A stretch of DNA of 57,112 bases from Basidiobolus ranarum (taxonomy: Eukaryota), in contig JASJQH010000011.1 in assembly GCA_040143965.1 (NCBI GenBank), forward strand, positions 1 to 57,112, in the 5' to 3' direction. The notes beneath the pieces were generated by a model. That model searched no databases. It was not told where the DNA came from and saw only the letters and a program-made list of their open reading frames with translations. Numbering within the stretch: position 1 is the first letter of the stretch; every line of letters starts with the position of its first letter. A program made the translations under genes and the position numbers. This document shows positions 1 to 39,046 of this stretch, piece by piece.

Positions 1-73
1 ATTCGGGCGGTTTGGTGGTTGGGGATCCGGTTGGAGCGATGACTGTGGTGGAGATGATTGTGGGGATTGTTGA
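1..73 (+). CDS. 3' end of secreted Gly/Arg/Phe-rich precursor, copy 1 (runs off the window start)
   Basis: Frame from base 2 reads FGRFGGWGSGWSDDCGGDDCGDC* (TGA 71-73), almost identical to the C-terminus of the 779-1474 gene. Confidence 0.85.
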   Translation, partial: FGRFGGWGSGWSDDCGGDDCGDC

Positions 74-778
74 TCAATATGCTTCGAAAATTTGAAATTC
101 TCCAATATCTCTCACAAATCTGTTTATACCAACTTTCACATCCTCATTACCCTCTTCCTAATGACTAGTCCAATAAAAAGATTATGTATAGAAGGTAATA
201 CTGCACTATTACGAAATCTTAGTACCAATAAATGTTTTGTTTCACAAGCAGAACCAAAAAAAATGAACAATAATAGTGCATTCTAAACTTATTGAATGTA
301 ACATGAAGCATGAAGGATGCAACCGGAATAAACCTATGATAGGTGCTAAAAGAACAAGAATGTTAGAAGGTTAGCAATACTACCGCTCACATAACATAGC
401 AACGCTATCATAATATTTACTTTGCTTTTAGAATTTGGCGATGTTACTGCGCAACACTGACAATTGCTTACTTATAAATGAGAAGATTATGATAGTATCT
501 ATTATTATTTGTAGCATATATATGAGCAAAATTACCCTCTACTCTGAATATATGAATATAATAGGCTACTAACATAAATGTATCTGGTTCCTAATAACAT
601 ATCTCATTTTTTAGACTCATATACATATATCAAGAGCAAATCTTTAATCTCCAGCAACGCTATTTTAAAACAACTACGTCATTCTTATGGCGAATTTACC
701 TGTATAAAACCACCAATTAAGATCCTATTTTTTGACAGTTTCGATTTGCCTTCCAACAAACCATTTACCATTACAAAG

Positions 779-1474
779 ATGTATCTCCAGATTGCTCTTA
801 TCAATACCTTGATATTTGCTTCCCTAACTAATGCATCTGATGCTCAACTAAATACACCTATTGCGAATGTTGCTTTAGCTACAGCTACTACTTTCCCGGC
901 AAGTGAGAACATGATGTTTGGAACTGACACTGATTTCTTCATTCCTGATCCCATATTGGATGAGGAGGTTGAGCTCACTCCCGAAGAATCCCAGTTGCAC
1001 CGTGTGAACCTTGGAAAAATACTTACTCGCCTGTCCGAGTCCACCCCTGGTAAGATAAAGAAACTCGATTCAACCAAGTTACATAAGCCTGGTAAACATG
1101 TAACTACAATGCATTCGGAATATGGTGAACAAAATGCAAATACTCCGGTCACTTCTGACAGCGTTGCCGTACCTAATGTTGCCTTCAGTGCAGATGATGA
1201 AGAAAATGCGGACTTAGATTCTTCTCCAGAAGAAACCGAGTTGCGACATGGAGGGCGTGGTGGCCGCGGAGGTCGAGGTAGACGTGGAGGTCGTAGAGAT
1301 CGTGGTCGGGGTCGCTTTGGAAGAGGGCGAGGACGCTTTGGTCGTGGCCGATTTGGAAGAGGTGGAAGGTTTGGTCGTTTTGGTGGTCGCAGATTTGGCA
1401 GATTCGGGCGGTTTGGTAGCTGGGGATCCGGATGGAACGATGATTGTGGTGGTGATGATTGCGGAGATTGCTAG
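779..1474 (+). CDS. Secreted precursor, copy 2 (231 aa): signal peptide, acidic pro-region, (GRF/RGG)n cationic domain, Trp/Asp/Cys tail
   Basis: ATG 779 (MYLQIALINTLIFASLTNA, hydrophobic signal-like) is the start conserved in the paralogues and follows a TATAAAA at ~702; intronless; ...SSPEETELR-HGGRGGRGG...GRFGRFGSWGSGWNDDCGGDDCGDC*. Confidence 0.9.
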   Translation: MYLQIALINTLIFASLTNASDAQLNTPIANVALATATTFPASENMMFGTDTDFFIPDPILDEEVELTPEESQLHRVNLGKILTRLSESTPGKIKKLDSTKLHKPGKHVTTMHSEYGEQNANTPVTSDSVAVPNVAFSADDEENADLDSSPEETELRHGGRGGRGGRGRRGGRRDRGRGRFGRGRGRFGRGRFGRGGRFGRFGGRRFGRFGRFGSWGSGWNDDCGGDDCGDC

Positions 1475-2206
1475 TCAACTAGCATCTGAAATGTTAAAAC
1501 TCTTAATGATTCCGGTAAATTTGTTTATACCAACTTTCACATTTTCATTACCTTCTTCCTATTGACCAACTCAATAAAAAAGCTCTATACAAGATGTATT
1601 ACTACACTATAGTGATTGTTGAATTTAAATATCAATACGTGTCTAGGAACAAAAACATTTACAACAGCAACTAATATTTAGTGAACCTGCAATAAGAACT
1701 AAAAAAGCAAAACGATTAGTAATATAACTACTTATTTACTAAAGTAATGCAGAGTTAATAAAGCTATAATGATATTTCATTGCCAAGAAACTTTTTTAGT
1801 GTTTGTAAGTATTCGCAGGTAATATATTCAGGGGTTTCAATAAATCATTCTTGACCATAGATTGTTGCAGCATGGCGATTTGCTAAATGAACCAACACTG
1901 GCAACTGTTTATATAAATCAATGTGATATTTATTCTCCTTGGTTGAATGTGTTGAAATCCCCTACTTTAACCACATTAATGTAACGGCCGCCAGACATGA
2001 ATTTACCGGCTCTATAATATCATACTTCATACGTTAAACTCACACCCCAGTATCAGCATCTAATGTTTAATTCTCTGAAAGGTTATTACAAAGCGGCTGG
2101 GTGCTTGATGTAACAAAATTAAATCTTGCCCATATAAAATGACCAAGTATGGCCTTATTCTCTGACATATTCGATTTATTTTTCAACAATTTTTCTCATT
2201 CCAAGC

Positions 2207-2894
2207 ATGTATCTACAAATTGCGCTTATCAACGCTATTCTGTTTGCCTCTCTAACTAACCCGGCTGATACTAAATCAAGCACACTCACTGAGCATGTTG
2301 CTCTAACCACTGCTGCGACCTTCCCAACAAGTGACGGCATGATGTTTGAGACAGATACCGACTTCCTCATTCCCAATTCCCTGTTGGATGAAGAGATCAA
2401 GCTCACTCTCGACGAATCCCAGTTACGTCGTGTTAACCTTGGAAAAATCTTAGCTCGCTTGTCTAAGTCTTCTCCAAATATGATAGAGAAATTCAGCTCA
2501 TAATTCTATAAAATTGGTAAACCTGTTGCTATGATGATTCTCGAAACTAGTGATCAAGATCCAAATGCTCCAGTCACTTCTAACAGCATTACTACGCCTG
2601 ATTCAGAAAAAGTTGAGGACACTGATGTTGACTACAGTGTGGATGACGCAAGAAATACGGATTTAGATACTTCTCCTGAAGAAACTGAGTTGCGACGTGG
2701 AGGGCGCAGTGGCCGCGGAGGTCAAGGACGTGGTCGCTTTGGTCGTGGCCGGAAGAGGTGAAAGGTTTGGTCGCTTCGGCGGTCGCAGATTGGGTAGGTT
2801 TGGCAGATTCGGGCGGTTTGGTGGTTGGGGATCTGGATGGAACGACGACTGTGGTGGAAATGATTGTGCTAATCAATACGCTTCCAAAATTTGA
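2207..2894 (+). pseudogene. Precursor copy 3, disrupted
   Basis: Same MYLQIALIN start and pro-region; in-frame TAA at 2501-2503; a 5-bp deletion near 2750 relative to copies 2/4 (GGCC[GATTT]GGAAGA) shifts the GRF repeat frame; the tail has lost the last Cys and the normal stop. Confidence 0.85.
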
Positions 2895-3261
2895 AATCCT
2901 TCAATATCTCTCACAAATCTGTTTATACCAACTTTCACAACCTCATTACCCTCTTCCTAATGACTATTCCAATAAAAAGATTATGTATAAGAGGTAATAC
3001 TACACTATTACGAAATCTTAGTATCAATATTTGTTTTGTTTCGCAAACAGAACCAAGAAAATTAACAATGATAGTGCATTCTAAACATACTGAATATAAC
3101 CGAAAGTATGAAGGATGTAACTTAAGATTATAAACCTATGACAAGCACTAACGGGACTATATAATCCAACACCTCTAAGAACCGTGCATGCTGAGATTCA
3201 TATCCTAACATACCAAGCTTTTGCAAATCTTCAAGAAAATGCTCCATAACTTTCCCACCCA

Positions 3262-3582
3262 TCATAGTATGCCAATGAGCTCGCACGGACGGCCTCGCGC
3301 AACAACCTGGCATCCTTTCTGCAGATATAATTCTTGTAAAAGACTGAGAAGTCTGCCATTGTCAAGAGCGACACCGGCTATGCCTTTTAGTGACAGCCAT
3401 TCAAGCAGTCTATGTCGTGGAGCTACATAATTTAATAACGTTTCACTTTCCTCGGCCTCCCTTGTGGCGGATAGGGTGCTCAGCTGCGCAGAGTTGGCCT
3501 TGGTGGTGCTTGTCTTGCGCGTGTTGGTCTTGGACGTGCTTTGTTCTGCTGCGCGTGCGGCCGATCGAGTGACAGGAGGCAT
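3262..3582 (-). pseudogene. Truncated gene fragment (MPPVTRSAARAAEQ...) at the left edge of the insertion
   Basis: GC-richer ORF with a basic, low-complexity N-terminus; runs into stops and the insertion junction; no family recognised. Confidence 0.35.
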
Positions 3583-3696
3583 GCCAGCGCTACTGTGCGG
3601 CTTGTAATTAGCCCCTTTCATAAATTACCATTTATTATGGACCGGACCACCTGACTTCCCGCCCCCTACCTTTTTCCTTACCTACCACCACCCAAT

Positions 3697-4230
3697 ATGC
3701 CCAAAAATACCAACAATAAAGAAGCCAATATCTAGAGGGCCCTAGATACACTCTGAGACCAAATAACCCCTAATATTTCCAGAACTGTGCGTGAATTCGC
3801 GGTTCCAAAGTCTACCCTTCTTCGCTGATAGAATGGTGGAAAATCGCTATTTAATCGATAACTAAACAATCAAAAGCTAGATATAGAGCAAGAGCAAGCT
3901 CTCTGTGCCTATATTGATCAGCTTGATACAGCTGGTATTCATATCAAACCAGCTCAAATTCAGAAATCTGCCAATTTTATTCTTTCTCTTGCATATATAG
4001 ACCCTACAAAACCACTACCTAAAATTGGTAAACACTAGGTTAAACGCTTCCTTTATTGATATCCTGAATATTAGCGGAGATAAAGAAGAGTTCTGGATAT
4101 TGAACGAAAACAAGCCCTGGACAAACGGACTATAGAAAAATGGTTTAATAAGTACAAAACTATAGTTATAGAGCAAGAAATTGATCTATGTGATATTTAC
4201 AATTTTGATGAGACTGGTTTTCGAATTGGT
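3697..4230 (+). mobile_element. Fot1/Pot2-type (pogo, Tc1/mariner superfamily) DDE transposase relic, N-terminal part only
   Basis: One frame from ATG 3697: HTH-like NISRTVREFAVPKSTL, CENP-B-like EQEQALCAYIDQLD...IGKH*VKRFL, ending in the family motif DIYNFDETGFRIG; nine in-frame stops, no frameshift. Confidence 0.9.
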
Positions 4231-4554
4231 CACGAAATTTGACAAAACACATTCAAACTTTTAATAATCAGATTTAGTTAGTAATTAATAGCTAATTAAT
4301 CATTAATTAATTATAGATAAGCTTTCTCAATATTATGCATATAAACTGGTTCGTGGAGTCGACCGTCTGGATCTCTCGAAATTAACTGGACATTTCGGTA
4401 TTGTTGCTCGTGTTTCGAAAGTGAGTCTGGTAGAAAACAAGAGAAAAATGAAAAGAACTAGCTCGATGTAGGTAATGAATAGCATTTGACAGAGAGAGGG
4501 AGGGGTGATATTTGGGATAAATTTACCAAATAAAAACGATCATCTGTTTGCGAT

Positions 4555-4720
4555 AACTGTTCGGGGGATCTGGGTCCGATTGACCGACCCCGACCGAATT
4601 CCCCTAATGCCTCAAATTCCCCGAATGCCCCGAATCTTCGGATAACATTTCCATATTGTTGAGATCGTCGGGGTCTGCTATAACGGGGTACAATGATACT
4701 CTACGTCCGAATACGTCCAG
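4555..4720 (+). promoter_or_regulatory. CCG/CGG-dense upstream region of the enoyl reductase (possible Zn(II)2Cys6 binding sites)
   Basis: Repeated CCGA/CCCCGA/TCGG/CGGA (e.g. GTCCGATTGACCGACCCCGACCGAATT, CCCCGAATGCCCCGAATCTTCGGATA), unlike the CpG-poor intergenic DNA elsewhere in the window. Confidence 0.45.
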
Positions 4721-4982
4721 ATTACCATGGAAAATCAGTGGAGAAATGAGTAGTCGCTAAATAAGCCTATAGTATTAACTAGCCATTGTATTTTTTTCGT
4801 AATATAATAGGCTAGGGCTGAGGGAACGATCTCGGCCTCTTTTGGACGCGAGGCCGTATTGCTGCTTACAAGTCTTCGTCTGCGGTGGGTAGCGTTACAC
4901 CGCAATTTATATATTTAGCTGTTCGGGTAACCCACTTCATCCATATCCAAAACATTCAACTTCTTTGAAAGATACCATCACT

Positions 4983-6035
4983 ATGCAAACAGCCACTCGT
5001 GCGATTTTCACCAACCAGAACGGCGAGCCGTATATTGGCACAGTCGACGAAACCTATGAGCCCCTTCCGACCGAGGTTCTTGTCAAGGTTGAGTTCTCCG
5101 GAATCAACCCCGCCGATCTCGGCCACGCCAGGATTGGATTCAACAACACTGTCGCCGGGTACGACTTCTCTGGAACCGTCATCAAAGCAGGCAGCGCCAA
5201 AAGTGGGCAGTTCAAACCCAATGATCGCGTTCTTGGATTTGCTGCGCCTCTTTTGGACAAGCCGAAGCAGTATGGCGCGCACCAAGAATTCCATTGCGCC
5301 AGGCATTTTGTCTACCACGTTCCCCCTTCTATGCCCATGGAAGATGCTGGTTGCCTCTTGGTTGTAACCCATACCGCTGCTGATGCTCTCTTCAATCGAC
5401 TCCAACTTTCCTTTGAAGACGAGTCCGAGCCTCTTTTGGTATGGGGTGGCTCAGGTGCTGTTGGAAGTGCCGCCATCCAACTCGCCAAAAAGGCAGGATG
5501 TTACCCAATCCTTGCCACCGCATCGCCTAAGAATCATGCAAAACTCTTAGAGATTGGTGCAACAGAGTGTTTTGATTACAATGACTGCGAGGTTGTGCAA
5601 AAAATTCAATCTGCTCTCAAGAAATACACCACTAAGCCGTTGAAGCGAGTATTGGATGCGGTCGTATCTCGCGGACAACCTTCTTCAACTAGCCTTTGCG
5701 AGTCTTGTGTCGAAGACTCAAGTGATGCTTTGTTCACTTCTCCAATCCCTGCTACGAGTGATGCAAAGAACCACTGGAGTCGTACCTTTGCCTGCAGAAA
5801 TGTTGACGTCGACTTCAGACTTCAGAACGGAACGCTATTCAGACACGCCCCTGATCAATCTATGCAAGCCAAAATCGATCAAGCTGCCAGCTGGGCTATT
5901 TCGAACTACGGGAATGGTTACTGCATGCCAAAAGTCGTGGTGGTGAAAGGTGGAGAGGATGGAGTGCGTGCCATACTTGATGTTTCTGCCGGAAAGGCCA
6001 GCATGCAGAAGTTTGTAATTGAGCATCCTATCTAA
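4983..6035 (+). CDS. MDR-superfamily NAD(P)H oxidoreductase, LovC-like trans-enoyl reductase (350 aa)
   Basis: EVLVKVEFSGINPAD, GYDFSGTV, GroES-like N-domain, Rossmann motif LLVWGGSGAVGSAAIQLAKKAG, ATASPKNH, FDYND; intronless, GC-richer than neighbouring genes; ATG 4983 preferred over the upstream TTG. Confidence 0.9.
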   Translation: MQTATRAIFTNQNGEPYIGTVDETYEPLPTEVLVKVEFSGINPADLGHARIGFNNTVAGYDFSGTVIKAGSAKSGQFKPNDRVLGFAAPLLDKPKQYGAHQEFHCARHFVYHVPPSMPMEDAGCLLVVTHTAADALFNRLQLSFEDESEPLLVWGGSGAVGSAAIQLAKKAGCYPILATASPKNHAKLLEIGATECFDYNDCEVVQKIQSALKKYTTKPLKRVLDAVVSRGQPSSTSLCESCVEDSSDALFTSPIPATSDAKNHWSRTFACRNVDVDFRLQNGTLFRHAPDQSMQAKIDQAASWAISNYGNGYCMPKVVVVKGGEDGVRAILDVSAGKASMQKFVIEHPI

Positions 6036-6510
6036 GAGCCTTTACATCACTAAGGTGCCCAGGTGGTGGATTTCTGAAAATTTATGTTCCTACCTCTGAC
6101 TATGCTTCCATGATTCTAAGGTTCTGTGCTTGTATTGTGTGTAAAGGTATATCTATCCGCACTCTTCGGAATGTTTCTTCTCTGCTTTGTTTAATCTACA
6201 TCATCTCGATTATGATTCCCAGCGGGAACTAGCATCATCCAATGATTTCTCCATAGTTCATACAGTTAATAGTATAGTTGTTATTAAATAAACTTTTGCC
6301 TTTTAACGCTCGAAATCATCAGCTTCGTTTGACTAAACTCCTGTAGTCCCCCAAAGGGCATTGTTTCGACCCCATCCACTCCCTTTAAAGTCTCTGTAAG
6401 GGCGCAGAGTTAGTGAAGAATGGATGATAGAGGGGTACAAATGACTGCCTCCTTACGTTCATCATGGGGCGGCATATTCCTGATATGAACTTGATCAAAA
6501 TCGAGATCTT

Positions 6511-7286
6511 TTGGTCCTTAATAACATTTATGACTACCTTCTTTGCCTATTCTTAGTAATCGGTAAGGAAAATCTAATAAGCATTCTAGCCACTACCTTA
6601 ACAAAACTATCACTAGAATATATTCCTAGAAGTATAAATAGATCTATAATTATAACAAGCCAGACCAAAGAGGTAGCATTAAAAATAGTTCACTATAATA
6701 ATTTTGTTAAGGTTAAGCATATGAAAAGCTATAAGGCGCTAGATCTTTTTTAAAAAAAACTTAATTAACCAGGGACCTTCCTTAACACATTCTACACGTA
6801 GTTTGTTTACATCTTGACAAAAGTATAAATGTCAATTTTCTACTCAATAAATCAATAAGTGAAAACCACCAATTTCTCTAATTCTCCAAACCACTTCCAA
6901 CAGGCTCCCAAATACTTTAACAGTTATTCAGTATTACAATATCTAAAAGACTTTCTAGGGGCAGAGCTTCTAAATAACTCTCGTGGTAGGGAAATGTCTG
7001 AATCTGATTCAGGCTCAGAGTTCAAAGATGATATTGTAATGCTAAGAGATTTTTCATTGATATCTATCAGTAAAAACAGTGCTTCATTTACAATGCATCA
7101 GGTAGTGCAACTGACTATGCGCGCATGGTTGAAATCGCATGGACAAATGAATACATGGCGGGAGAGATTCATTAGTACCCTGTATAACAAGCTCCCCACT
7201 GGTGAATTCCAAGGCGGAGACTCCAAACAAATTATTGATAGCACCTGGATGCTGGCAATAGCATATTCCCTGGAGGGCCGATGGAA
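6511..7286 (+). pseudogene. NB-ARC/TPR (fungal NLR, 'kinesin light chain'-type) relic interrupted by an LTR fragment
   Basis: LVLNNIYD (degenerate Walker B LILDNxDD), YIPRSINRSIIITSQTKEVALKIV (cf. YLPxSxxGSIIITTR), EFKDDIVMLRDFSLIS...FTMHQVVQLTMRAWLKSHG (MHxLVQ motif), and a TPR start MLAIAYSLEGRW; internal deletions. Confidence 0.75.
6769..6922 (+). mobile_element. Partial (3' ~154 bp) copy of the solo-LTR family
   Basis: Near-identical to ~17010-17164; ends CCCAAATACTTTAACA. Confidence 0.85.
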
Positions 7287-7645
7287 AGATGGTTAGCAAT
7301 ACTACCCATTCACATAGCATATTGAGGCAGAACTATTAACGCTATAATAACATTTACTTTACTTTAAGAGTTTGTTTGCATTAGTGCGCAACACTGACAA
7401 TTGCTTACTTATAATTGAGAATACTATGTAACAGTCTATTAAAAGAAATTTATTTGGTTCATATTACTATATCTCATGTGTTAGACTCATCCATATATCA
7501 AGAGCAAAAGTTTAATCTTCAGTAACGCTATTTTAAATTGACTGCGTCATTATTCTATCAAATTACCTGTATAAAACTACCAGTAATGCTCCTATTTTTT
7601 GACAGTTTCGATTTGCCTTCTAACAAACCATCTACCATTACAAAG

Positions 7646-8344
7646 ATGTATCTTCAAATTGCTCTTATCAATGCCTTGTTGCTTGCTTCTCTAACGAATG
7701 CATCTGACGTTCTAAATTCGCCTGTTGCCAATGTTGCTTTAGCTACAGCTACTACCTTCCCCGCAAGTGAGAGCATAATGCTTGGAACTGACACTGAATT
7801 CTTCATTCCCAATTCCATGTTGGATGAAGATGTCGAACTCACTCCCGAAGAATCGCAGATGCATCGTGTCAACCTTGGAAAGATACTTGCTCGCTTGTCT
7901 AAATCCTCTCCAGGCAATATAGGGAAATTTAGTTCAGTTGAGCTCCTTAAAACTGATAAACCTGTGACTAAGATGATTTCTGAAACTGGTGCCCAAGATA
8001 CAAATATTCCAGTCACCTCTGATAGCAACTTCGCACCTGCCTCAGGCAAAATTGAAAATGACGATATAGCCTACAGTGATGCTGATGAAACAAACACTAA
8101 TTTAGATGCTTCACCTGAAGAAACCGAGTTGCGACGTGGAGGGCGCGGTGGCCGCGGAGGTCGTGGAGTTCGGGGTCGTTTTGGACGAGGACGAAGACGC
8201 TTTGGTCGTGGCCGATTTGGAAGAGGTGGAAGGTTTGGTCGCTTCGGCGGTCGCAGATTTGGTAGGTTTGGCAGATTCGGACGGTTTGGTGGTTGGGGAT
8301 CCAGATGGAACGATAACTGTGTCGATGATTGTGAAAGTTGTTAA
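7646..8344 (+). CDS. Secreted precursor, copy 4 (232 aa)
   Basis: MYLQIALINALLLASLTNA...SPEETELRR-GGRGGRGGRGVRGRFGRGRRRFGRGRFGRGGRFGRFGGRRFGRFGRFGRFGGWGSRWNDNCVDDCESC*; upstream 7287-7645 is paralogous to 365-778. Confidence 0.9.
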   Translation: MYLQIALINALLLASLTNASDVLNSPVANVALATATTFPASESIMLGTDTEFFIPNSMLDEDVELTPEESQMHRVNLGKILARLSKSSPGNIGKFSSVELLKTDKPVTKMISETGAQDTNIPVTSDSNFAPASGKIENDDIAYSDADETNTNLDASPEETELRRGGRGGRGGRGVRGRFGRGRRRFGRGRFGRGGRFGRFGGRRFGRFGRFGRFGGWGSRWNDNCVDDCESC

Positions 8345-9572
8345 TCAGTTTGTACCACAAGTCTTGAATGCCTTGAATATTCCTGTGAAACCTTTTTATA
8401 GCAAGCATTTACATCTTTAGCACCTGCTTCCCTTTACTACTCCAATAAAGTCATTTTAAATGGAACTACAATGCGTGCGATCAGAATGCTTTAATACTTA
8501 TGATGCATTATGTACTTATGAAAATAAGCCTCCGTACCTGCTAGTAGTTATGTTGTCAATAAGCAGATCTTCTAACGGTGACCCTTGTCACTCTCTGATG
8601 GGAGAACTTGGCGGGGAGTATATATATATATATATTCTACATGAACCCCTGATCTAGCAGTGCAGCTTAGTATACTGAAATTAATGTCAATATATTAATC
8701 ATGGTAGTGATGGAAAGCCTCAAAACTGAAACAATACTGATAAAAATTTGAACTATTAAATGCAGAATTTACTTCACATTTTTAGTGCCAAATGATACGT
8801 AGTAGTAAGTAGCGAAAGAAACAAGAAATGTTTTAGAGGGTAGTGAGTACGGATCATTTAGGGTAATTAACAGAATTTTATAATTTGACACAATTTAAAT
8901 TCTGAATACCTGATATTAGTGAGACAGTTTCTAAAATGTCAGGCAATTGTGAGCACTAATACTTACCTTTGCCGGGTAATATATCTAAGAATAGTGGAAT
9001 TTGCATAATATAAATCCTAATGAACTCAATTCTAACAAATACTTACGTTTATATTGTGTAGAATAGAATCGTAGTAATTGAGGACAAAAAATCCAATTGA
9101 AAAATGACCTACAAGTATGTAGGGTATCTCTTCCTGTATTTCAATTCAAATGATCATTTTGGCATGGCTTAGTTGGTATTACTCAATAATTGTAGGCAGT
9201 CACTGTCAGTGATGTGTCAAGTCGCCATCAATATAGGTTTATTTTCATTTAATAAAATAGGCGGGGTGTTCATGTGTAAATTTTTATTAATATAAGATGT
9301 AGTCTACGAATCATGATGTTCAGAACCGTCAACATATAACAATATATTTAATGATTGCTTTATTATAGTAGATCGGCTTAATATACTGATTTCTCATTTC
9401 AAGAAGTTATAGATGCTATAATTTCTTTCAGCAAGATTAAAATAAAGTCAATGGTGATGCTAATTCTTGTGAGAAAACGGGCAGTTCAAGCTTTGAAGTA
9501 CACTTGATTTGTGAAGAACATGTAGTTAATGAAGTTTGTAAGCAACTATGTAATAATCTCATGTCTCTCCGG

Positions 9573-10634
9573 TTAATAAATCAATTTTGCAAGTTCTGCT
9601 GGTTGTAGTAAGATGATTAGTGGTCCTGCAAGTACAGATGCCTCTGTAGGAGCTCCTGATACATCAGATATGACCGCTAGAATGACTCCTTTGTTCTCAA
9701 AGTCTTTGGGAATCATCGAAGAATTGGTTTTTGTATCAAATGGCATGGAGATATTTAGTAGTCCGTGGAAGAATACTGCGTAATAATCCTTTCCCTCTTG
9801 AAAGTTGGGTACAAGGGATGGATTACGATACGAAAAGGTGATTGGCAGCTCTGGTGCTAATAACGTAGAGTTGGAGACGTATGAGAGCTGGGGTAGATGC
9901 TGGGATGGCTCGGGATATGTAGGATTCTCCTTAGGACAAGAACCAGGGACAATAAATTCATTGGTAACATCGAGAACTTGATTTGCATAGGGAAAGACAG
10001 TATCAGATGGTCCACCAAATGGATCAGCTTTCCAAATATCGATGAGGCCCCAAGTTTCGTGACGGGATTCAGTTTCCGCTATTGCTACTAGGACAGCCTT
10101 TGTAGTATTTGTTTGTGCTTGTAAAATGAGTCCAGTCAGAAATGCCATACTGGAGATCTCAATTATGGTACTCAACGCCAGAAATGAAGCTGCTGAAGTA
10201 AAGCCATAGTTATATTTGCACGCTCCAGGTTTCACTGAGTTACTAGAAATTTGATTTTGAAAAATACGTAAGTGACCTGCTTCATTGTTACGGATCTCTT
10301 GGATGCGAGAGTAGGTGGTGTTTGGCCATTCAGTAAAATTGGCAGCGGTGAATACCTCAACGCCTTGTTGATAGAAGGAGAATATGGCCCATTCTGCACT
10401 TAACAAGTTTTGGAATAGTAGATCGTCAGGTCCAGGGTTACCTTGACTTGTCGAAAGTATAGGAGCAGTATGGTTACCGGGGAAGGGAGGGGCTCTACCG
10501 TTGTAGCTGTTGTAAGATGAGCTTTCGCCTGGAATAGGACCGTAGCTAGGATCGCTGATATTTGTGGTGGGAAAGGCTTGCGAAGTAGAAAGCGTGAAGG
10601 CTAATGCAACGGCAATAGATATGGATGAGAACAT
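9573..10634 (-). CDS. Secreted ferritin-like domain protein (Rds1/Ferritin_2-like), 353 aa
   Basis: Signal peptide; LSAEWAIFSFYQQG, IRNNEAGH and IAETESRH give the E...ExxH...E...ExxH four-helix di-metal pattern; intronless. Confidence 0.8.
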   Translation of the reverse strand: MFSSISIAVALAFTLSTSQAFPTTNISDPSYGPIPGESSSYNSYNGRAPPFPGNHTAPILSTSQGNPGPDDLLFQNLLSAEWAIFSFYQQGVEVFTAANFTEWPNTTYSRIQEIRNNEAGHLRIFQNQISSNSVKPGACKYNYGFTSAASFLALSTIIEISSMAFLTGLILQAQTNTTKAVLVAIAETESRHETWGLIDIWKADPFGGPSDTVFPYANQVLDVTNEFIVPGSCPKENPTYPEPSQHLPQLSYVSNSTLLAPELPITFSYRNPSLVPNFQEGKDYYAVFFHGLLNISMPFDTKTNSSMIPKDFENKGVILAVISDVSGAPTEASVLAGPLIILLQPAELAKLIY

Positions 10635-11149
10635 TTTGGATATAGCTCAGAATCTTGACAACAAGACTTACTTATAGTGCACTTAACACCAGTGAAATAC
10701 CCAAGTAGATGCATGACAAGACTTGCTTAGAGATTGTAATGTTGAATTCTTGGCATCATCTACTATTAACCCAGGTGGATGAAATGTTTACCCGTGAGCG
10801 GAATGACTGTTTGTGAGCTAACTTGGATATGCCAGATTAGTGGATATCTGAATATTGGCATATTTCCACGCTGGCAACTATCCTAATTTCTAATGATCGC
10901 TCTCTTGCATAACATCACAATCACTAATTTGACTAAATAAGGTGTATGGAGTTTAATTTTACCTTCAGCATGCAAAAAAGGCACGTGTCCCAGAGGTCAC
11001 ACTGATCACTAATCCGATGGGCTAAGCACAAATGAGCAAGAGTCACCAATTAGATGACTATTTTTCCATGTAAATAATACACACCAACTAAATCGATAGG
11101 TTGAATAAGTGGCACCTTTAAGCATAAAGCAGTGGTGAAGAAAGCGCAT

Positions 11150-18285: not shown

Positions 18286-19746
18286 CTAGTGAGTGAAAGA
18301 TTTCTTATTCACCCAAGTGTTCAACATATCTAACGAAGCTTCTGGTTGATCATATGGCACCATATGTCCAGCTCCAAATATGCGAAGGAATGTCAACTTG
18401 CCATGGGTTCGAACCTCACCTGCCTTGGTTCCATTGACGGTCCAGAGAGTATCTTTTGCGGCATTAAAACCACGCTTACCAGGCCAGTTAACATCCAAAG
18501 CAACAGCTTTGTTACCTAACCAGTTACAAATAAAATCGGCATCTCCAGCATACACTAAGACACGAATTCCCTCCTGAAGTAATTTGGGGATACGATCAGC
18601 ATAGTTAGTCATACTATCGGGAGTCTTGGAGAAATTCTCCCCCACGGTATTGCTACAAGAAGAAAATTTCCCAACTTCCTTGGCAACGCCCAGTTCAGCT
18701 CTAATCTCTGGACGATTCAACCAGATATCAATCCCTGCTTCAATAGCATAACAAAGATCACTTCCAGGGTCACAAGGCTTGCGAATATCGTATGGATTGA
18801 GTCCAGTATTATAATAAACATTCTCAATATTTTCTTCACAGAAATCAGTAGCTGCCTTACAGTTTTCAAATGTATGTTCGCGATAGCATTTGGTAGCCAA
18901 ACTATAGCACCTGGGGTAGGCAGCATTCATCTTGGCACAATCTTCTTTACTTAAAATCGCACCATATGGACCACCCTCACATACCTGTGGAGCGTAATAT
19001 TTCTCTTGAAGACGAGGATCGATCCAACCATTTCCAATACCAATACTCTTGAGATGAATCTTTTTCGAGTTAGGAACTCTCTTGTTATTATGTACAATAT
19101 CCTTGGCAATTTCGGGAATATAATGACCAGCATAAGATTCACCAAATACATGGAAATCTTGCTTGGAATATTGTGGATATGTCTTGAAGAATTTACGAAG
19201 GAATGTGTCAACATCAATTCCACTTTGTGCGGTGGTGGATACGTTAGCTCCCCATGAGTAACCTACTCCTGCAGGTTGGTCCAAGAAGATGACATTAGCA
19301 TTCTTGTTCCATGAGTGAGGGTTGAAATCCACTCCTGAACCGTCTGGTTTAACTCTACATGGACCCAACTCCATCAGAAGACCAGTGAATGAGCTGCAAC
19401 CAGGGCCACCGTTCAACCAAAGGATCACTGGATCAGTGGAAGGTTTATGACGTGACTCAAAGAACCAATAATAGAGATGCTTTCCGGAAGTGACATCTAT
19501 GTATCCAGAATACTACAAGAAATTGTTTAGTCTTACACATGAGATATTTAACGAACCAAATCTTACCTGCTTGACAGAAGCATCACAAAGTTTGGGCTGT
19601 TTAACTGAAAGCTGATTATGGCGGGCCACAAGACTACGCGAAGATACCTCAGTTGTATCCAGAGATCTCTTGAATGCCGGAATGGCTTGGAAGTTGTAAC
19701 CCAAAGCCACGGGAAGTAAGGCAGCTATCAACAAAGAAGTCTTCAT
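18286..19746 (-). CDS. Serine carboxypeptidase S10 (carboxypeptidase Y-like), signal peptide, one intron (~19568-19513)
   Basis: MKTSLLIAALLPVALG; LCDASVKQ|YSGYIDV; WLNGGPGCSS; FLDQPAGVGYS; catalytic GESYAG, GDADFICN, AGHMVPYDQP. Confidence 0.93.
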
Positions 19747-20708: not shown

Positions 20709-23700
20709 TTATGAGCCAAATTGACTAGGCCCTTGATTGGGCAATTGATTTTGTGGTGTACCTCGACCACTCCCTCTCATTAAAGGTAACATTCCTCTAC
20801 CTTGTGATAGAGCTAAATTTGGGTTTCGAACTTGCATAGGAATGGAAGTACCACTAGGGTTTCCATGATTCATACCCATATTGTGGGCTGCCATTTGCTG
20901 TTGGAGTAACTGCTGTTGCCATAGAAGTTGGTTCCGTTGATTTAAGGCGAACATTTGAGGGGTCACTAGTAGAGTTAAAGCATTAGTCATACATAAGAAA
21001 TCCTGCCGTTTACTTGGCATCTTTACTTACTTCCATTAGGTAAATTAACTGGCTGTCCGTTCGGACTCGTCATCTGGTGCGGAACGTTACCTGTAGGCTA
21101 AAATTCACGTTGAAATGGGTGGAATTTAATAAAGTCAGTGGTGTTTGTCAATGGATTGTGCTTTACTTACCCGTACTTGTAGCATTTGTTGTGGTGGTGG
21201 GGGCTGTAAAGGCGAAGTGCGGAATTGCAAAGAGGCCTGCGCTACTGAAAGTGAAGGCTGAGGGGGTGATTGTTGATGTTGCTGTGGAGATATTGACATT
21301 TGTTGATTAGATATGGACGGTGATTGGCCCATCTCCTGTCTTTGCAACATTGGCGATGAATTCTGGCTAAACTGTATAGGTGAAGATAATTGAGAGTGCT
21401 GCTGGTGGGGCGACTGTAGCTGCTGCTGTGATGGAGAAAATTGCTGTTGTTGATTTTGCGGAGAAGGTACTGACAGGAGGGGACTTTGCTGCTGCGTCTG
21501 CTGTGCTTGTTGTCGCTGCTGCTGTTGTTGCTGTAGAGCCCGTTGCATCATCAACTGCTTCTTTCTAATAAGCTGTTGTTTGAGTTGATTTAACTGTTGA
21601 GGAGTTAAATTTTTCATTCCTTTACTCTGAGCAAATTGCTGTAGACTCAAAGACAGCGCATCCTGCGGAGTAGCACTACTTGTAGAGGTAGACGGTATTC
21701 CGTTTGTGTTGGCAGGGGTAATATTCCCAGGCAAAATCGCTGGCGTTTGGAGATTTCCACCGACTGGAGGAGAAGCACTGGCCTGTTGCGCCTGAAAAAG
21801 GTGTGCTTGTAAAGGAGAATGCTGTGGTTGAGATGATGAGGAATCCAAATGTGATGGTAGCTGGGTAGGTAGTTGAGCCGGCAAACTCGGTGTGGTTTGA
21901 GGTTGAGTTGGTGATATTTGAATTGGAGGTTGTGGTAATGGTGCCGGCTGGGGAGGTTGTTGTACTGAAGGAATAGCTTGCGGCAGAGTTCGAGCAATCG
22001 GTTGAGTTTGGGCGAGCATAAGCAAAGGATTTTGAACATGCGATAGAAGATGTGGGCTTTGAGAAGATGTCGGCTCTGGCTGTTGATCTTGTGTAGAAGC
22101 TTGCAGTGAAGGCGATGGTGCTGGAGAAGAGAATGCGATCAAAGAGTCGTCAGATATCAATTTGTGATCAATTTCAAAGATTCTTTTAGCATTCTCAATA
22201 TACATTTGAAGCGTACTCTTCGAGCCAATATGGAACCTACAGGCAAAAAGGACGGATTAATCATATGGACATCAACTAGTTTATCATTAAGTACGTACTT
22301 CATCGTATTCCCATTAATGCTAGTGTTCGGAGCAGCTCCTATGCGCAACAACCCATCAAATTCCGATGTATTACCGTCCAGATATATATTGATTATGGTA
22401 TACAATGTATCTGATAGCAAGGCAAGTTAGACAATCAACTGACAATAAGTAGCAGCTATAAAGCACTTACGTCCCCCTGCCTCTTTGGCGAACCTCAGAG
22501 TTCTAACTATCTGCTTGTTGTCGTGGGTAGGTGGCAATGGCTCGATGATTTGACGATCTAGAGGCGAAAAGAGTGTTAGTAAGCTCGAAATTTAGTGCAT
22601 GCAATGTATCAGAAACATACTCTTCAATTTTTTGGTAACCAAGCCTTGCGATGGCTCAGCATCAGCCATGGTTTTCCTTTTCCGCCAATCCTGTACAAAA
22701 GATAACCGGCCAAATCTGTTGGAAGATACTGGTGAGTGAAGAAGTTCAAAAGTGAAGGTGCAATAAGAAATGCATACGTAGGTTGGAATTCTCTTTGATA
22801 ACGCTACAAGACAAACGGTTAGAACTAGAAGTCAGGCAATTGCTAGGCTGAATAACATATACCTCATCCATCATCATCATGGTTTTCTCCTTCTCAGCCT
22901 TTTCAGCAGATTCCGTCTCTTTCTCCACGGATATTCTCTTCTTCCGCTTCTTGACCTTTCGAATATTTCCATAGTTACACATGGTGTTACTAATTCGAGT
23001 GACTTGGAACGACGGATCCAAGCATAAGGGCTCTTCGGTGGCAAGCTTTGGGGATATGTTAGCAGTCAATCTCAGGGATACAGGCTGTAAGCATAAATTT
23101 ACGAACCAGTATCTTCGACTCCACCTCTAGGGTGAAATCTTCGGACCAGAAACTGTCACATTTTTCATTAAGCAAGCACAGATCAGACCATAGCGTTTCT
23201 GCGTTCGGGGTAAGTAGCACTCTGTGAGTATTGGCGTTAGACGCATGAATATCGGCCAAGTGGATTTCACGGTAGTCATGAATCTCTGCTATGATACATC
23301 CTTCAAGAAGCACATATTATGTCAGCTACCATACCCACGATCAAAATTACATCAACAAAACTCATTACCTTCGTAGTATTGGCACTGCGCTTCGTCGAAA
23401 ACATCCACTAAATCGGGTGGAATTCGTTGCTTGTTTAGGTAATCCAAAAAATTCTAGTGAAGAAATTTGTGTTTAGCAACGAAGTAGACGGTAAAGTGAT
23501 ATGGACCATGGATGTTTAGATGCTATAAGATATCTAAAGATACATACTTTCATTGAGCTACTGAACAGAAACACTCCATCCTATTTTCAAAATGTTTTAA
23601 AACTGTTAGTCATCAAGTTTTCTTCAGCCTGCCTGAAGCGGGACAGAAATGAAAAAGGACAAGTACCTGTTTCTCGAACTTGAAATGAGTTGGAAATATG

Positions 23701-27619: not shown

Positions 27620-28438
27620 GATCGATCTGAGCAAGTTGCTGCTTCGGCTTATAATCCCACATTACTATGATGTCAATTTGGGGAACACATGATTTGCCCT
27701 CAGAGCCGATATATCCTTCAGTGTCCCAGATAAGGGTAATCATGTCGTATTTATGACGTATTATTTGACCATCTTAGGCCTTTCCCAACAGTTTCGCAGT
27801 ATTAGTAATTTTTACGTGTTGGTAGCTGCACTGTGACTTTTCCTTGGCTGCAACAATCATCTGCTTGCTTGGAATACCAAGGAAAAAAGGAGGAAATGGT
27901 GTAGGAAATGATGTAGGAAATGGCAGCAATCGTGATGGTCTAGGAGATAATGGTAGCAACCCTATGTCCACACTGCTGGAGTCAAATCTATATGACAAAT
28001 GGTAAACTAAAAGTATATCCATAAGCGTATTAATATCTTCCTAAATCCACCAATAGAGTTGAGAGGCACTACAACATTAGATCATTAGTCTGAGAGACCA
28101 GAAATCACAAAAGTCATGTCCATCAGTCATCTGCCCGTTTATAGGCTATATCGATGCCCGTCGCTCACCTGGGGTTTTCAATAAATAATCCGATGTTTGA
28201 GTAGACCCCCGATTATTTAGTGTAGCAACCATCGCCATCATCGCCATCTTCCTTTTCATTTACATTCCCTTTTATCCCATTTTGTTATATTTCAATACAC
28301 GCTCTACCGCGAACTTTAAAAACACTTCTCTATATATCCATAGCAATCGTTGTTTCTTCTATAACACAAGCGGTAGCACTTTCCTGCGATATATACTTCT
28401 AGATACATACATATTAGAAACAAGCCCAAAAGTGCAAA

Positions 28439-30523
28439 ATGACAATAGGTCTTTCGTACAAACCGAGTCACATTTCACTTCCGGATACTTCACCATACTT
28501 TCCACGAAATGGTAAATCCCCAAGTAAAATGTATACGACGAACCCCCTGGATTCTCCAATTATCTCCCCTCGGGTTTCTTCTCCCCGCTCACCATGTGGT
28601 TCTGGAATGAAGAACTACTTTTCTCCGAGTGAAGCACAATCGCCACAAACCAATGAGTCATTGTCGCGTTTCAACTTCCTTAGCATGCAAGCCACTAAGA
28701 ACAGGCAGTCAGATAATTCTCCCAAAAGACAAATACCCAATAACTCCGACTCAAGTTTGAGTAATTTCAGAACAGTCACTCCCGAGTTGTTGGCAGAGCT
28801 TATGCAAAGCAACAACCCTAGTCAAGTGCTGATTATTGATATGCGCTCTTTTGTTCACTACTCTCAATCACACATTAATGACGCCGTGAACCTCTGTATT
28901 CCCAATACATTACTCAAAAGACCCTCTTTTGGTGTGGAGAAGCTTGCCGAAACCTTGATCACAGAAAACGATCGAAAAATACTAAATAATTGGATGAATT
29001 ACGCTAGTATTGTAATGTATGATGCCTCCTCCGAGTTTATTGCTGATAATACCCCAATCATTCATCTCGCCAAGAAGTTTATGGGAAAAGCTAGTTCCGT
29101 CTCCATAGGTTGGCTGAAGGGTGGATTTGATAACTTCCAATCGAAGTTTTCAAATTTATGCAAAGTTAACAGTATCATACCAGCCAAAGTATCAGCCAGT
29201 AAGCCTCTACCATCACCTTCTACTTTTTTGGCGGGCCCTCTTACTTGTCCTACACCTACTCTTGGTGGTATGACTACACCTTTCTTCAATAATATCAGAC
29301 CACACCATGATGTTACATGCGAACTTGGGGAAATTGTAGCAGTTCGTACACCAGTCAAGTCGCAGAACCCTGTTTCTGGACTCCCACCTTTTCTTGCCGA
29401 TGTTGCCTACAACGCGCAAGGAAAGTACAAATTATCACAAACATTCAAACGTATCGATAAGGTTGAACAAAAACGTTTGCAGTCTTTACTTATTGCGCAA
29501 GCACATCACGTTTGTCAGTCCAATCCATATAGCATAGCTGCCGGCATTGAGCGTGGTTCAAAGAATCGTTATAATAACATATGGCCCTATGAGCACTCCA
29601 GAGTGAAACTCGAACATTCTGGCAGATCTGACTCGGACTACATCAACGCCAGTTTCATCCATAGTAAAGGTATCTCAAGTCAATATATAGCTACACAGGC
29701 GCCTCTACCATCTACCTTCTCCGATTTCTGGGAAATGATATGGGAGCAAAACTCGCGAGTCATTGTAATGCTTACTAAAGAAGAGGAAGCCGGAAGAATC
29801 AAGTGCCACAGATATTGGCCAGACACCATTACTTCACCACCGATCACATATGAGGAAAATGTTCAAGTAAAGCTGGTATCCGAATCCCTACCACTAGAGA
29901 ATGATACTACTGTGACACTTCGGAACCTCATTTTAACCAATCTCCATACTGGTGAGGAGCGCAGTATACATCAACTTCATTTTATTGGATGGCCTGACTT
30001 TGGGATTCCTACTGATCCTACTGGCGTCTTGGGTCTGCGTGATATCGCACATGACATTCAACAATCGCAAGAGTCAGGGCCGATGATTGTTCATTGTAGC
30101 GCTGGATGTGGTAGAACCGGAGCATTTTGTACTATTGACACAGTGCTTGAAACCCTAGCATCCAAGCAACAATCGATAAATACCCTCCAGGAAGATATGA
30201 TTGCCGAAGTAGTTGATCAATTTCGGGATCAGCGTCTATCTATGGTCCAAACCCTACGACAGTTTGTCTTCTGTTATGAAGCAGTTCTATGGAGATTAGT
30301 AGGGGCACCAGGTTGTCAAAGGAAGAGTACTGGCGTTTCCAAGCCCATCAAACCAGTTAGTATGCCACATGTAGCTCAGCACAACGCTGACCCTGTCCCT
30401 AAATCTTCTCAGACTGAGCTCATCCTGAACCCTCCGTCTGGTGCAGATTTCTTTTCCTTTTCACCTAGTCATAATACTTCACTTTCGTTTAACGATCCAC
30501 GACGCACATCGTATTTTGGTTAA
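28439..30523 (+). CDS. Rhodanese-domain tyrosine-specific protein phosphatase (Pyp1/Ptp2/3-like), 694 aa
   Basis: LIIDMRSF...SHINDAVNLCIPNTLLKR rhodanese domain; KNRYNNIWPY, DYINAS, YIATQAP, WPDFG, VHCSAGCGRTG, MVQTLRQF. Confidence 0.95.
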   Translation: MTIGLSYKPSHISLPDTSPYFPRNGKSPSKMYTTNPLDSPIISPRVSSPRSPCGSGMKNYFSPSEAQSPQTNESLSRFNFLSMQATKNRQSDNSPKRQIPNNSDSSLSNFRTVTPELLAELMQSNNPSQVLIIDMRSFVHYSQSHINDAVNLCIPNTLLKRPSFGVEKLAETLITENDRKILNNWMNYASIVMYDASSEFIADNTPIIHLAKKFMGKASSVSIGWLKGGFDNFQSKFSNLCKVNSIIPAKVSASKPLPSPSTFLAGPLTCPTPTLGGMTTPFFNNIRPHHDVTCELGEIVAVRTPVKSQNPVSGLPPFLADVAYNAQGKYKLSQTFKRIDKVEQKRLQSLLIAQAHHVCQSNPYSIAAGIERGSKNRYNNIWPYEHSRVKLEHSGRSDSDYINASFIHSKGISSQYIATQAPLPSTFSDFWEMIWEQNSRVIVMLTKEEEAGRIKCHRYWPDTITSPPITYEENVQVKLVSESLPLENDTTVTLRNLILTNLHTGEERSIHQLHFIGWPDFGIPTDPTGVLGLRDIAHDIQQSQESGPMIVHCSAGCGRTGAFCTIDTVLETLASKQQSINTLQEDMIAEVVDQFRDQRLSMVQTLRQFVFCYEAVLWRLVGAPGCQRKSTGVSKPIKPVSMPHVAQHNADPVPKSSQTELILNPPSGADFFSFSPSHNTSLSFNDPRRTSYFG

Positions 30524-30887
30524 ACAGCGCTTGATAAAAGAGCATCTAGTATTGTAAATATTCGCTGTATCATTAGTATTAATTACTAGCAATCACCAAT
30601 TATCATCCTAATCATGTATTGCATTGAAAAGAGCCATTTACATTTAATTTGTGTGGTTGTTAAAATCAAAATAAATCCAACAAAAAGGCAATTATCGAAT
30701 GGAAACTGGCAAAGAAAATTAGTTCTCCCTTTATGTAGATTCAGATACACTCAATAATCATAGGAATTCTGTATATATAGGTTAAGTGTAATTTAACTTG
30801 ACTCTAAGTGAATATATAAAAAGTACCGAAATCAATGAAGGGAAAATATATAGTGTATTTGTCATGCAGGAAGGATCAGGTGATTCT

Positions 30888-32910: not shown

Positions 32911-33368
32911 TTTAAATGAATATGGTATGTAAACTGTTTAACCAAGTAGGAAGGACGATAAATTCCCAAGCCTACAATTGTTAAGCGAAGAATATGAGCT
33001 AAAGGTTGACTTCAAATTACAACTTCCTATTGTAAACTTTTTAAAGGGTACAATAGTTGGCGAATTGATAGGTAAAAAATGATTGAAATCCGGAAATACT
33101 ATCGATTTGATGAATCTATGCGTGCCACTACAACAATATCAATGCCCACAACTTGCTAGCATTCATATGACATTCCCAATCATAAATCTCAATCACAGGT
33201 CATTTTGGCCAATCAATTATTGGCAACGAAGCAAAGTAATCCGAGAATGCTTATTAAAATCGATGATTTATACTCAATCAAAAGTAGCCATGGCAGCAAC
33301 GTAGCTAATCCAACAATGCTGCTTAAGATATTGACTAAATTGAGCATCCAAAGGAATGAAGTTTAAGA

Positions 33369-33409
33369 GTCACGTGGTTCTTGTGACGGTTATTTAGGGT
33401 TAGGGTTAA
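33369..33409. promoter_or_regulatory. GTCACGTG (Cbf1-type E-box) next to TTTAGGGTTAGGGTTAA (Tbf1-type/telomere-like)
   Basis: Motifs read directly at 33369-33376 and 33393-33409; function inferred. Confidence 0.4.
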
Positions 33410-38061: not shown

Positions 38062-38635
38062 TGAGAAATTAAGCTTAAAGTAAAAAAAAACGCTCTTAAC
38101 AAAGGAAAACTAAGATCCAGATGAAGATGAAAAGATCCTTTAACGCATGACGTCAAGGCGTTTATTAATACCAGATGTTGGCAGTGACCAGGATCTACTG
38201 TAATAGTCTCGATCTCAGTGTTTGCAATACTATCTTCCTTTCGCTTTACTTCGAGGGGGGGTTCTCGTTTCGCCGGGCGGCCGTATAATTTTTTTCCTTT
38301 CTCCCTTTCTTTTTTCGTTAATACCTCCCCGTTTGGAGACGCAAAAACTCGATGGTGGTTGGGGCGATTACGCAAATATGAAAAAGGCCCCTGGATCAAA
38401 AATTTTCACTATGTTTCCCAGTGATAGGTGCGATAGATCACTTCACCTGATTTTCCATTAGAATAGATGAATTTATGGTCACGAAGTAACCATCTATAGG
38501 TATTATTGAGTATCTAGCCCTATGGCAGGGTGAGTTCCTACCAAAAGAGTCACACTCTGATGATGCATCCCTCATAAATTATAGATTACTTTGTTCATTG
38601 GTGGTTAGTCTTTCGCCTAACCCTGCTCATTAATT

Positions 38636-38770
38636 CCATTTGATTAGTGTCATCAAGTGTGTGTAAATGAATCCATTTGATTAGAGCCATTGAATTCTGT
38701 AGATTGCATTTGATTAGAGCCATTGAATTGTGTAGATTCCATTTGATTAGAGCCATGGAATGTGTGTAAA
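38636..38770. repeat. Minisatellite, 4 copies of ~33 bp
   Basis: CCATTTGATTAGAGCCATTGAATTGTGTAGATT-like units starting at 38636, 38673, 38706, 38739. Confidence 0.85.
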
Positions 38771-39046
38771 CGTTCTACCTCAGCTCATGCCAAATCAATC
38801 CATATGACTCATCGGTGACTGGGCACTCATTGCTAAATTATTAAGCAGAATGGATTGCGATTGAATGGTTCATTTACTCAACCTTGCACAGATTCAATGA
38901 ACTTGCTAAATACTGATATATTTGTTATTCATAAAATTTGCCCTCTGAAATTGATGCAAGAGTGTTCTTTAATAATGAGTGTACTACAGTTTGGTTAAGG
39001 TACAGGTAGAGGTAAAGGTAAACGTAGAGAGGGATCCAAAGGAAAA

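Follow-up and report, generated by a model that had tools for sequence, protein, structure and literature searches.

In a typical antimicrobial peptide the mature part is cationic and its pro-piece acidic, and combining Arg with aromatic residues (Phe/Trp) makes a membrane-active chemistry. To our knowledge, linear cationic peptides of ribosomal origin are hardly known in fungi, and the early-diverging lineages have barely been explored in this respect. Kex2-processed repeat proteins (KEPs) are another described class of secreted precursor: in the portion of PMC7329392 drawn on here, they are defined by three or more tandem repeats, none shorter than 8 aa, that are each bounded by KR, KK, RK or RR sites, and the fungus richest in them is Basidiobolus meristosporus, with 43, including a Tyr/Asp-rich type with seven members. 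Here we describe a cluster of tandem genes at the left end of contig JASJQH010000011.1 of Basidiobolus ranarum (assembly GCA_040143965.1), of which positions 1 to 57,112 were analysed (the window, 57 kb). The genes encode proteins with a signal-peptide-like N-terminus, an acidic leader, a fixed junction and a C-terminal unit of Arg/Gly/Phe repeats, and we call them the RFG family. Our leading interpretation, to which we give a probability of about 0.4, is that they encode prepro-polycations that would be freed at the junction and act on polyanionic targets, most likely as antimicrobials.

In the mechanism we propose, the protein would enter the secretory pathway with its acidic leader masking the polycation, and a kexin-type or other basic-residue-specific protease would cut at or beside the junction Arg. 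The freed polycation would then bind polyanions, on microbial envelopes or membranes or in nucleic acids, through Arg and Phe/Trp residues segregated by the period-3 repeat; its likeliest role would be that of a host-defence-like antimicrobial against competitors in a gut, dung or soil niche. Tandem duplication accompanied by a dead copy fits a birth-and-death mode of evolution, often seen among defence and effector families. We place the antimicrobial role first because the prepro-cationic layout, the Arg/aromatic chemistry and the tandem birth-and-death pattern coincide with a bacteria-dense habitat: Basidiobolus are herptile gut fungi (PMC9391592, in part) and live amid dense bacterial communities.

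Layout and conservation of the predicted proteins

All 11 N-termini examined in the family consist of about 19 residues with a hydrophobic core (best 10-aa Kyte-Doolittle mean 1.74–2.82; 2.33 in copy 2 of the window) and have small residues at a (-3,-1) site close to residue 19, which in copy 2 is residue 19 itself. A Kyte-Doolittle scan found no second hydrophobic segment in the family proteins. In the eight full-length RFG-type proteins, this segment is followed by an acidic region of 105–144 aa with a net charge of -11 to -19, then by the junction PEETELR, unchanged in all eight (SPEETELR(R/H) in copies 2, 3 and 4), and finally by a C-terminal unit with a net charge of +13 to +25. This is the layout of a prepro cationic antimicrobial peptide: a signal-peptide-like segment, an anionic pro-piece and a cationic part. 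The whole precursor is near neutral (net -3 to +8), since the negative charge of the leader almost offsets the positive charge of the basic unit.

The core of the C-terminal unit (50–67 aa, net +18 to +26) is nearly all Gly, Arg and Phe, with Arg making up about 40%, and its blocks keep a constant order from GGR repeats through GRGRF units to dense RFG. In an extended three-fold conformation, the period-3 repeat puts Arg and Phe on separate faces; this segregation is a consequence of the repeat period and hence no independent evidence for the proposed action. A collagen-like or polyglycine-II triple helix was considered for the RFG repeat and rejected, as Gly at every third position holds for about three triplets at most.

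The protein ends in a tail that in seven of the eight proteins comprises an aromatic-Gly-x-Gly-aromatic motif, NDDC and an acidic CxxC-like end, with a net charge of -3 to -6; in the window copies it reads WGS(G/R)W(N/S)D(D/N)C...DC..C. The exception, P0009, has a tail of 8 residues with a net charge of -1 and without NDDC. Every Cys is confined to the last 9 (P0009) to 15 (P0006) residues. The sequence-only reading of this DNA, made before any database search, had described the same order of parts, from a signal peptide and an acidic pro-piece that neutralises the cationic unit to GGR repeats, RFG repeats and a Trp/Asp/Cys tail. The translations of copies 2–4 agree with it, the charges offset each other as it had supposed, and the N-termini fit a signal peptide by the heuristic rules used here. 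Its three-Cys tail holds for six of the eight full-length proteins; one of the others has two Cys and the other four.

AlphaFold2 (AF2), given a 12-sequence family alignment, yielded no fold (mean predicted local distance difference test score (pLDDT) 47; predicted template modelling score 0.19). Its only helices were at residues 2–19, the signal peptide, and at residues 67–86, a conserved leader stretch (PEESQMHRVNLGKILARLSK) with 10-residue block-mean pLDDT values of 61–66. The protein is predicted to be intrinsically disordered save for the signal peptide and this one leader helix.

To describe selection, we compared copies 2 and 4 by the Nei-Gojobori method. The ratio dN/dS was 0.21 in the signal peptide (20 codons, dS 0.38), 0.35 in the pro-region (135 codons, dS 0.57) and 0.18 in the C-terminal unit (66 codons, dS 0.40). 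The repeat of the C-terminal unit uses all six Arg codons and carries 16 synonymous differences over its 66 codons; because synonymous changes are abundant and the full set of Arg codons is in use, the repeat is conserved at the protein level and not by plain slippage. The same number of differences and the dS of 0.40 disfavour recent gene conversion as the cause. Across the eight proteins, 35 of 75 columns are invariant in the C-terminal unit, compared with 14 of 136 in the pro-region (seven of them PEETELR), a contrast that is partly inflated by low-complexity alignment. By these measures constraint is strongest in the cargo and second strongest at the junction, and the family consists of real coding genes under purifying selection.

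Relatives and a second cargo

When the whole protein was used in a word-indexed search, in which only 8000 candidates were scored, the matches apart from the query itself were six hypothetical B. ranarum proteins (E 2e-93 to 4e-22). Because this search was saturated by RGG words, we searched with the leader alone. The word-indexed version gave three proteins among 270 candidates, and a profile of the two window leaders, run exhaustively against 1.84 billion representative proteins, gave ten matches at E ≤ 0.001, of which five are from B. ranarum. The five others are 1153–7839 aa long, match through 5–12 weak stretches and have neither TPEE nor PEETEL; we judged them unrelated.

Among the matches in B. 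ranarum, P0012 (204 aa) is the most informative. It matches the leader profile at E 4e-7, shares 32% identity with copy 2 from the signal peptide through PEETEL (E 3e-18) and finds the window by tblastn at E 9e-17. Past the junction its cargo is a different one, built of short units rich in Tyr, Asp and Arg (HDYDRY, for example) that an RR sets apart at 8-residue intervals, the cargo layout of a Kex2-processed repeat protein. By sequence comparison, the leader and junction behave as a cassette joined to at least two unrelated cargos. That one leader carries two cargos is our strongest argument, if an indirect one, for regarding the junction as a processing site and the C-terminal part as the released product. 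The repeat and junction motifs had no match in three of the at least four supplementary files of PMC7329392, the paper that describes the Tyr/Asp-rich type (S-3) to which P0012 might belong.

Tandem arrangement recurs elsewhere in B. ranarum, where two members sit on one 7912-base contig with consecutive locus tags. For three further relatives, P0010, P0011 and P0018, the models are partial or short and contain the leader only. P0011 (106 aa) and P0018 (128 aa) share an 11.5-kb contig, and P0011 ends in a Lys/Leu-rich amphipathic stretch; possible explanations for these two are model truncation, gene decay to pseudogenes or a cargo of a third type.

No Pfam family matched either intact window protein at E ≤ 1, and the 12 members together gave three insignificant matches (best E 0.038); the Pfam profile GRP (plant glycine-rich protein) and those of other curated Gly-rich families were not matched. 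Neither the leader nor the C-terminal unit had a match among PDB sequences at E ≤ 1, the ESM Atlas held no usable neighbour of the whole protein or of the leader, and a literature search on the repeat motifs and the topic found no relevant paper. The portions consulted of PMC7329392, bioRxiv 10.1101/2025.03.31.646025 and PMC9391592 do not mention the family. In metagenome contigs of the Joint Genome Institute (JGI) there were at least 597 pattern matches, and one of those listed passed tblastn; it lies on a GC-rich low-complexity contig with no related ORF (open reading frame) and was discarded as spurious. The sequence-only reading had not recognised the family, an impression that these searches bear out; the only relatives they found are from B. 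ranarum. Within the libraries searched, the family appears to be an orphan restricted to the genus Basidiobolus.

The gene cluster

Read with the standard code, the window contains four copies of the gene, of which two are intact ORFs, one is a pseudogene and one a 3' fragment (Table 1). The frame-2 translation of the fragment, bases 2–70, is FGRFGGWGSGWSDDCGGDDCGDC, an RFG-repeat end followed by the Trp/Asp/Cys tail; its body lies beyond the left edge of the window. Copy 3 carries a TAA codon in frame at 2501–2503, a gap of 5 bases, by comparison with the other copies, near 2750 within the repeat, whose frameshift leads to a TGA at 2759–2761, and a 7-base gap near 2866 with which the last Cys codons of the tail are lost. 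All four paralogues lie where the sequence-only reading had placed them, and the copy that it called broken is indeed so. When three family proteins were compared by tblastn with the whole window, the three long copies were the sole matches. The intact paralogues, copies 2 and 4, match each other at E 8e-65, and on these alignments similarity within the family is far above chance.

Table 1 Copies of the RFG family in the window, their candidate control elements and the predicted segments of the two intact proteins
Feature	Position	Strand	Remarks
Copy 1	2..73	+	3' end: 23 codons (2–70, frame 2) and stop 71–73
Copy 2 (P0002)	779..1474	+	intact ORF, 231 aa
Copy 3	2207..2894	+	pseudogene, three lesions
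Copy 4 (P0003)	7646..8344	+	intact ORF, 232 aa
TATAAAA box, copy 2	703..709	+	76 bases 5' of ATG
TATAAAA box, copy 4	7570..7576	+	76 bases 5' of ATG
AATAAA, copy 1	starts 172	+	99 bases past stop
AATAAA, copy 2	1573..1578	+	99 bases past stop
AATAAA, copy 4	8444..8449	+	100 bases past stop
Copy 2, signal-peptide-like segment	779..835	+	aa 1–19, predicted cut TNA/SD; hydrophobicity and (-3,-1) rule, heuristic; AF2 helix 2–19 in the paralogue
Copy 2, acidic pro-region (leader)	836..1246	+	net -15, ends in SPEETELR
Copy 2, cationic C-terminal unit	1247..1474	+	75 aa, net +16; GGR and then RFG repeats, tail SWGSGWNDDCGGDDCGDC, stop
Copy 4, signal-peptide-like segment	7646..7702	+	aa 1–19; hydrophobicity and (-3,-1) check, AF2 helix
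Copy 4, acidic pro-region (leader)	7703..8134	+	ends in SPEETELR; holds helix aa 67–86
Copy 4, cationic C-terminal unit	8135..8344	+	69 aa, net +17; tail GWGSRWNDNCVDDCESC, stop

Candidate control elements recur with the copies. Copy 3 has its TATAAAA box at -74 from the ATG, close to the spacing of the intact genes, and each of the four copies has an AATAAA 77–100 bases 3' of its stop. Between copies 2 and 4, the sequence that leads from the TATA box up to the ATG (690–778 compared with 7557–7645) is 90–97% identical, whereas the coding pro-region is only 62–92% identical, which suggests a conserved promoter or 5' untranslated element upstream of these two genes. The duplicated unit appears to be a whole small transcription unit, made up of TATA box, gene and AATAAA, and the genes read as single-exon and tandemly duplicated.

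Copy 4 has a further in-frame ATG upstream, at 7586, about 10 bases past the start of its TATA box (7570). Because this codon crowds the TATA box and copy 2 has no ATG there, the likely start is the one that gives MYLQ..., which is also where the 231-aa protein of this contig begins in its database record and where all seven full-length B. ranarum models begin. Long off-frame or antisense ORFs overlap the intact copies at 844–1470 (-), 1248–1565 (+) and 8097–8420 (both strands); they are by-products of the Gly/Arg codon repeat and not genes.

Neighbouring genes

Between copies 3 and 4 lies a zinc-type alcohol dehydrogenase/MDR-family ORF (4893–6035, +; Pfam ADH_N and ADH_zinc_N), in a stretch with a G+C content of 0.42–0.45 compared with 0.37–0.38; we found no link between it and the RFG family. 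A short ORF just 5' of copy 4 (6859–7296, +) has a weak DUF7779 match (E 4.8e-4, which misses the Pfam cut-off) and looks like a fragment of an NLR-type gene. Immediately 3' of the cluster is a ferritin-like ORF (9573–10646, -; Ferritin_2, E 7.6e-16). Farther along, three ORFs of 373, 221 and 262 aa, counted stop to stop, belong to no Pfam family (21135–22256, 35968–36633 and 51453–52241, all -), and the first of them lies in strong GC skew (0.229). The region 28418–47480 contains housekeeping genes for a tyrosine phosphatase with a rhodanese domain, Sec63, NAT10 and AP-2 alpha-adaptin. As these genes share the window, we take the cluster to lie in normal nuclear chromosomal DNA.

Tailoring enzymes were sought with Pfam in 19 ORFs of at least 119 aa across the 57 kb, 18 of them drawn from the 39 stop-to-stop frames of at least 120 aa. 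Families were assigned to 12 of the 19: the MDR-type dehydrogenase, the weak DUF7779 match, the ferritin-like protein, DJ-1, a sugar transporter, carboxypeptidase Y, the tyrosine phosphatase, Sec63, NAT10, alpha-adaptin, DUF4646 and mitochondrial L28. None of the 19 is a DUF3328/UstYa protein, an oxidase, a methyltransferase, a radical SAM enzyme or a kexin, although short or intron-split genes could escape such a scan. We considered whether the S10 carboxypeptidase (18286–19512, -) might be a Kex1-type trimming enzyme and rejected the idea: it matches carboxypeptidase Y at E 2.5e-107 and Kex1 at 4.6e-42, and is probably vacuolar and unrelated to the cluster.

Discussion

Several observations weigh against a prepro-polycation with an antimicrobial role. 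The predicted mature part is long (68–79 aa) and 40–45% Gly, it has no sequence or fold similarity to known antimicrobial peptides in the Pfam and PDB sequence searches, and the model leaves the conserved acidic Cys tail unexplained. The C-terminal unit is conserved and not diversifying (dN/dS 0.18), unlike many antimicrobial peptide families engaged in an arms race. The signal-peptide call was made from Kyte-Doolittle hydrophobicity and the (-3,-1) rule alone. Finally, the sequence-only reading had Kex2 cutting at the junction. The invariance of PEETELR agrees with a cut there, but the site is dibasic in only six of the eight proteins, reading RH in copy 2 and R followed by GG in P0009, so the part of the claim that names Kex2 carries over to most members and not to all.

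It is possible, if somewhat doubtful, that the protein, whole or cleaved, serves instead as an extracellular adhesive or matrix material. On this account it would be a block polyampholyte, one part acidic and the other Arg/Phe/Gly, that charge and cation-pi attraction would condense as a coacervate or glue, and that is cross-linked through the tail Cys and used on capilliconidia, for example, or as a component of the wall or matrix. The RFG repeat recalls phase-separating RGG domains and marine bioadhesives. Opposite charge blocks of near-equal size, Arg and Phe interspersed with Gly in a sticker-and-spacer fashion and the disorder predicted by AF2 all suit such a material, and strong conservation of the repeat fits assembly better than an arms race. 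The odd number of Cys (three) in six of the eight proteins would favour intermolecular disulfides, and the capilliconidia of Basidiobolaceae have an apical beak coated with adhesive material (PMC13370150, in part). Against this account, we found no link between these genes and conidia, the proteins are short with one repeat block each, and the invariant junction beside basic residues resembles a processing site; P0012, with the same leader and a very different short-repeat cargo, fits a peptide-precursor cassette better.

That comparison raises the question of whether the RFG cargo is itself chopped at RR, like a KEP or the precursor of a RiPP (a peptide that is synthesized ribosomally and then modified post-translationally), into short FGR-rich peptides, possibly modified, that act as signals or toxins. 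We consider this unlikely, even though the leader carries a KEP-like cargo in P0012, B. meristosporus has its 43 KEPs with a Tyr/Asp-rich type among them, and six of the eight RFG-type proteins have at least one RR within the RFG block. The published repeat rule (PMC7329392, in part) fails for the RFG proteins, while P0012 comes near it: their C-terminal units contain 0–3 dibasic sites at non-equivalent positions, and the resulting fragments are unequal and no repeat units. The internal GGRRFG site falls in an equivalent column in just five of the eight, and the sequence-only suggestion that internal RR sites release shorter FGR peptides does not survive as a feature of the family. Its further suggestion of a RiPP system loses ground because the 19 ORFs scanned include neither a DUF3328/UstYa gene nor any other for tailoring. 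Neither a DUF3328 neighbour nor Tyr cores repeated between Kex2 sites, as in precursors of dikaritins (ustiloxin-type RiPPs), were found; the core has no Tyr in seven of the eight proteins. Animal precursors are cleaved and amidated where Arg-Phe-Gly precedes a basic residue, and the RFGR strings led us to consider an RFamide-type precursor. We regard this as scarcely credible: cutting each such site would yield tri- to pentapeptides, and we know of no amidating enzyme in fungi. Very improbable, too, is a protein of the RGG type that stays inside the cell, binding RNA or residing in the nucleolus, and whose hydrophobic N-terminus does not act as a signal peptide. Nuclear RNA-binding proteins typically carry RGG/RG repeats, but none of the 12 members has an RRM, KH or other Pfam domain, all 11 N-termini show the n/h/c layout with small residues at -3 and -1, and this N-terminus is conserved at a dN/dS of 0.21. 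The upstream ATG of copy 4, for its part, lies close to the TATA box and is absent from copy 2.

Returning to the prepro-polycation, what appears to be new here is an orphan, genus-level family that combines an unusual secreted-type RGG/RFG polycation with a modular leader. We suggest, tentatively, that Basidiobolus has evolved a peptide-export cassette, consisting of a signal peptide, an acidic leader with an amphipathic helix and PEETEL-R, that it has joined this cassette to unrelated repeat cargos (the RFG polycation and, in P0012, RR-delimited Tyr/Asp/Arg hexapeptides), and that the RFG cargo represents a new class of fungal extracellular polycation. If so, this cargo is perhaps the first fungal linear Arg/Gly/Phe peptide of the host-defence type or, alternatively, a secreted phase-separating 'RGG domain' that works as extracellular glue or as a nucleic-acid trap. 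One leader with different cargos would also be a sequence by which further secreted peptides could be mined from Basidiobolus genomes, and the predicted mature product is short enough for synthesis, which makes it a testable candidate for a new antimicrobial or polyanion-binding scaffold. If it turns out instead to act as an adhesive or to form condensates, it would exemplify a rare extracellular use of RGG-type phase-separation chemistry.

Comparison with known systems

Defensins and plectasin-type fungal peptides share with the RFG family the sequence of signal peptide (signal-peptide-like segment in the RFG proteins), acidic pro-piece and cationic mature part, and a near-neutral precursor. 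They differ in their compact fold with at least six Cys, whereas the RFG proteins have 2–4 Cys in an acidic tail, predicted disorder and a Gly/Arg/Phe repeat; there is no sequence similarity between the two. Nematode NLP/caenacin peptides, spider acanthoscurrin and plant shepherins are likewise Gly-rich and of low complexity, with short-period aromatics and clustered paralogues, and are secreted, as the RFG proteins are predicted to be. These linear peptides are mostly Gly/Tyr or Gly/His and of modest charge, whereas Phe is the aromatic residue of the RFG core with its high share of Arg; the long acidic leader and the Cys tail are peculiar to the RFG family, and we detected no homology.

The RGG/RG domains of FUS, LAF-1 and DDX4 offer a likeness of another kind: they too have Arg-Gly repeats with Phe, disorder and a sticker-and-spacer arrangement, through which they phase-separate and bind nucleic acids. 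Those domains are intracellular and joined to RNA-binding or helicase domains; the RFG proteins contain RGG but have a signal-peptide-like N-terminus, an acidic pro-region, a Cys tail and, in all 12 members, no Pfam domain. The diatom silaffin precursor and sandcastle-worm cement are secreted and join an acidic N-terminal part to a polybasic repeat, or condense from oppositely charged partners. Their chemistry is Lys/Ser or Gly/Lys/Tyr, they are heavily modified, and they come from other organisms and show no homology to the RFG family; for this fungus, we know of no mineral or cement beyond the conidial adhesive.

KEPs, such as the yeast alpha-factor precursor, Ustilago Rep1 and the ustiloxin-type precursors, resemble the RFG proteins, as far as the portion of PMC7329392 drawn on here describes them, in having a pro-region, a repetitive cargo with Arg-Arg and tandem, lineage-specific expansion, and in their signal peptide if the signal-peptide-like N-terminus of the RFG family acts as one, and the RR-delimited short repeats typical of them occur behind the same leader in P0012. 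They differ in that the RFG cargo has no equal units between dibasic sites, which are few and unconserved in it, and in that a long conserved leader and an invariant junction are traits of the RFG family and not of KEPs; nor does the RFG cluster have a DUF3328 neighbour. Fitting no defined family among those tested, the RFG family would seem to work most like a prepro cationic peptide and, through its leader, to be kin to a KEP-like precursor.

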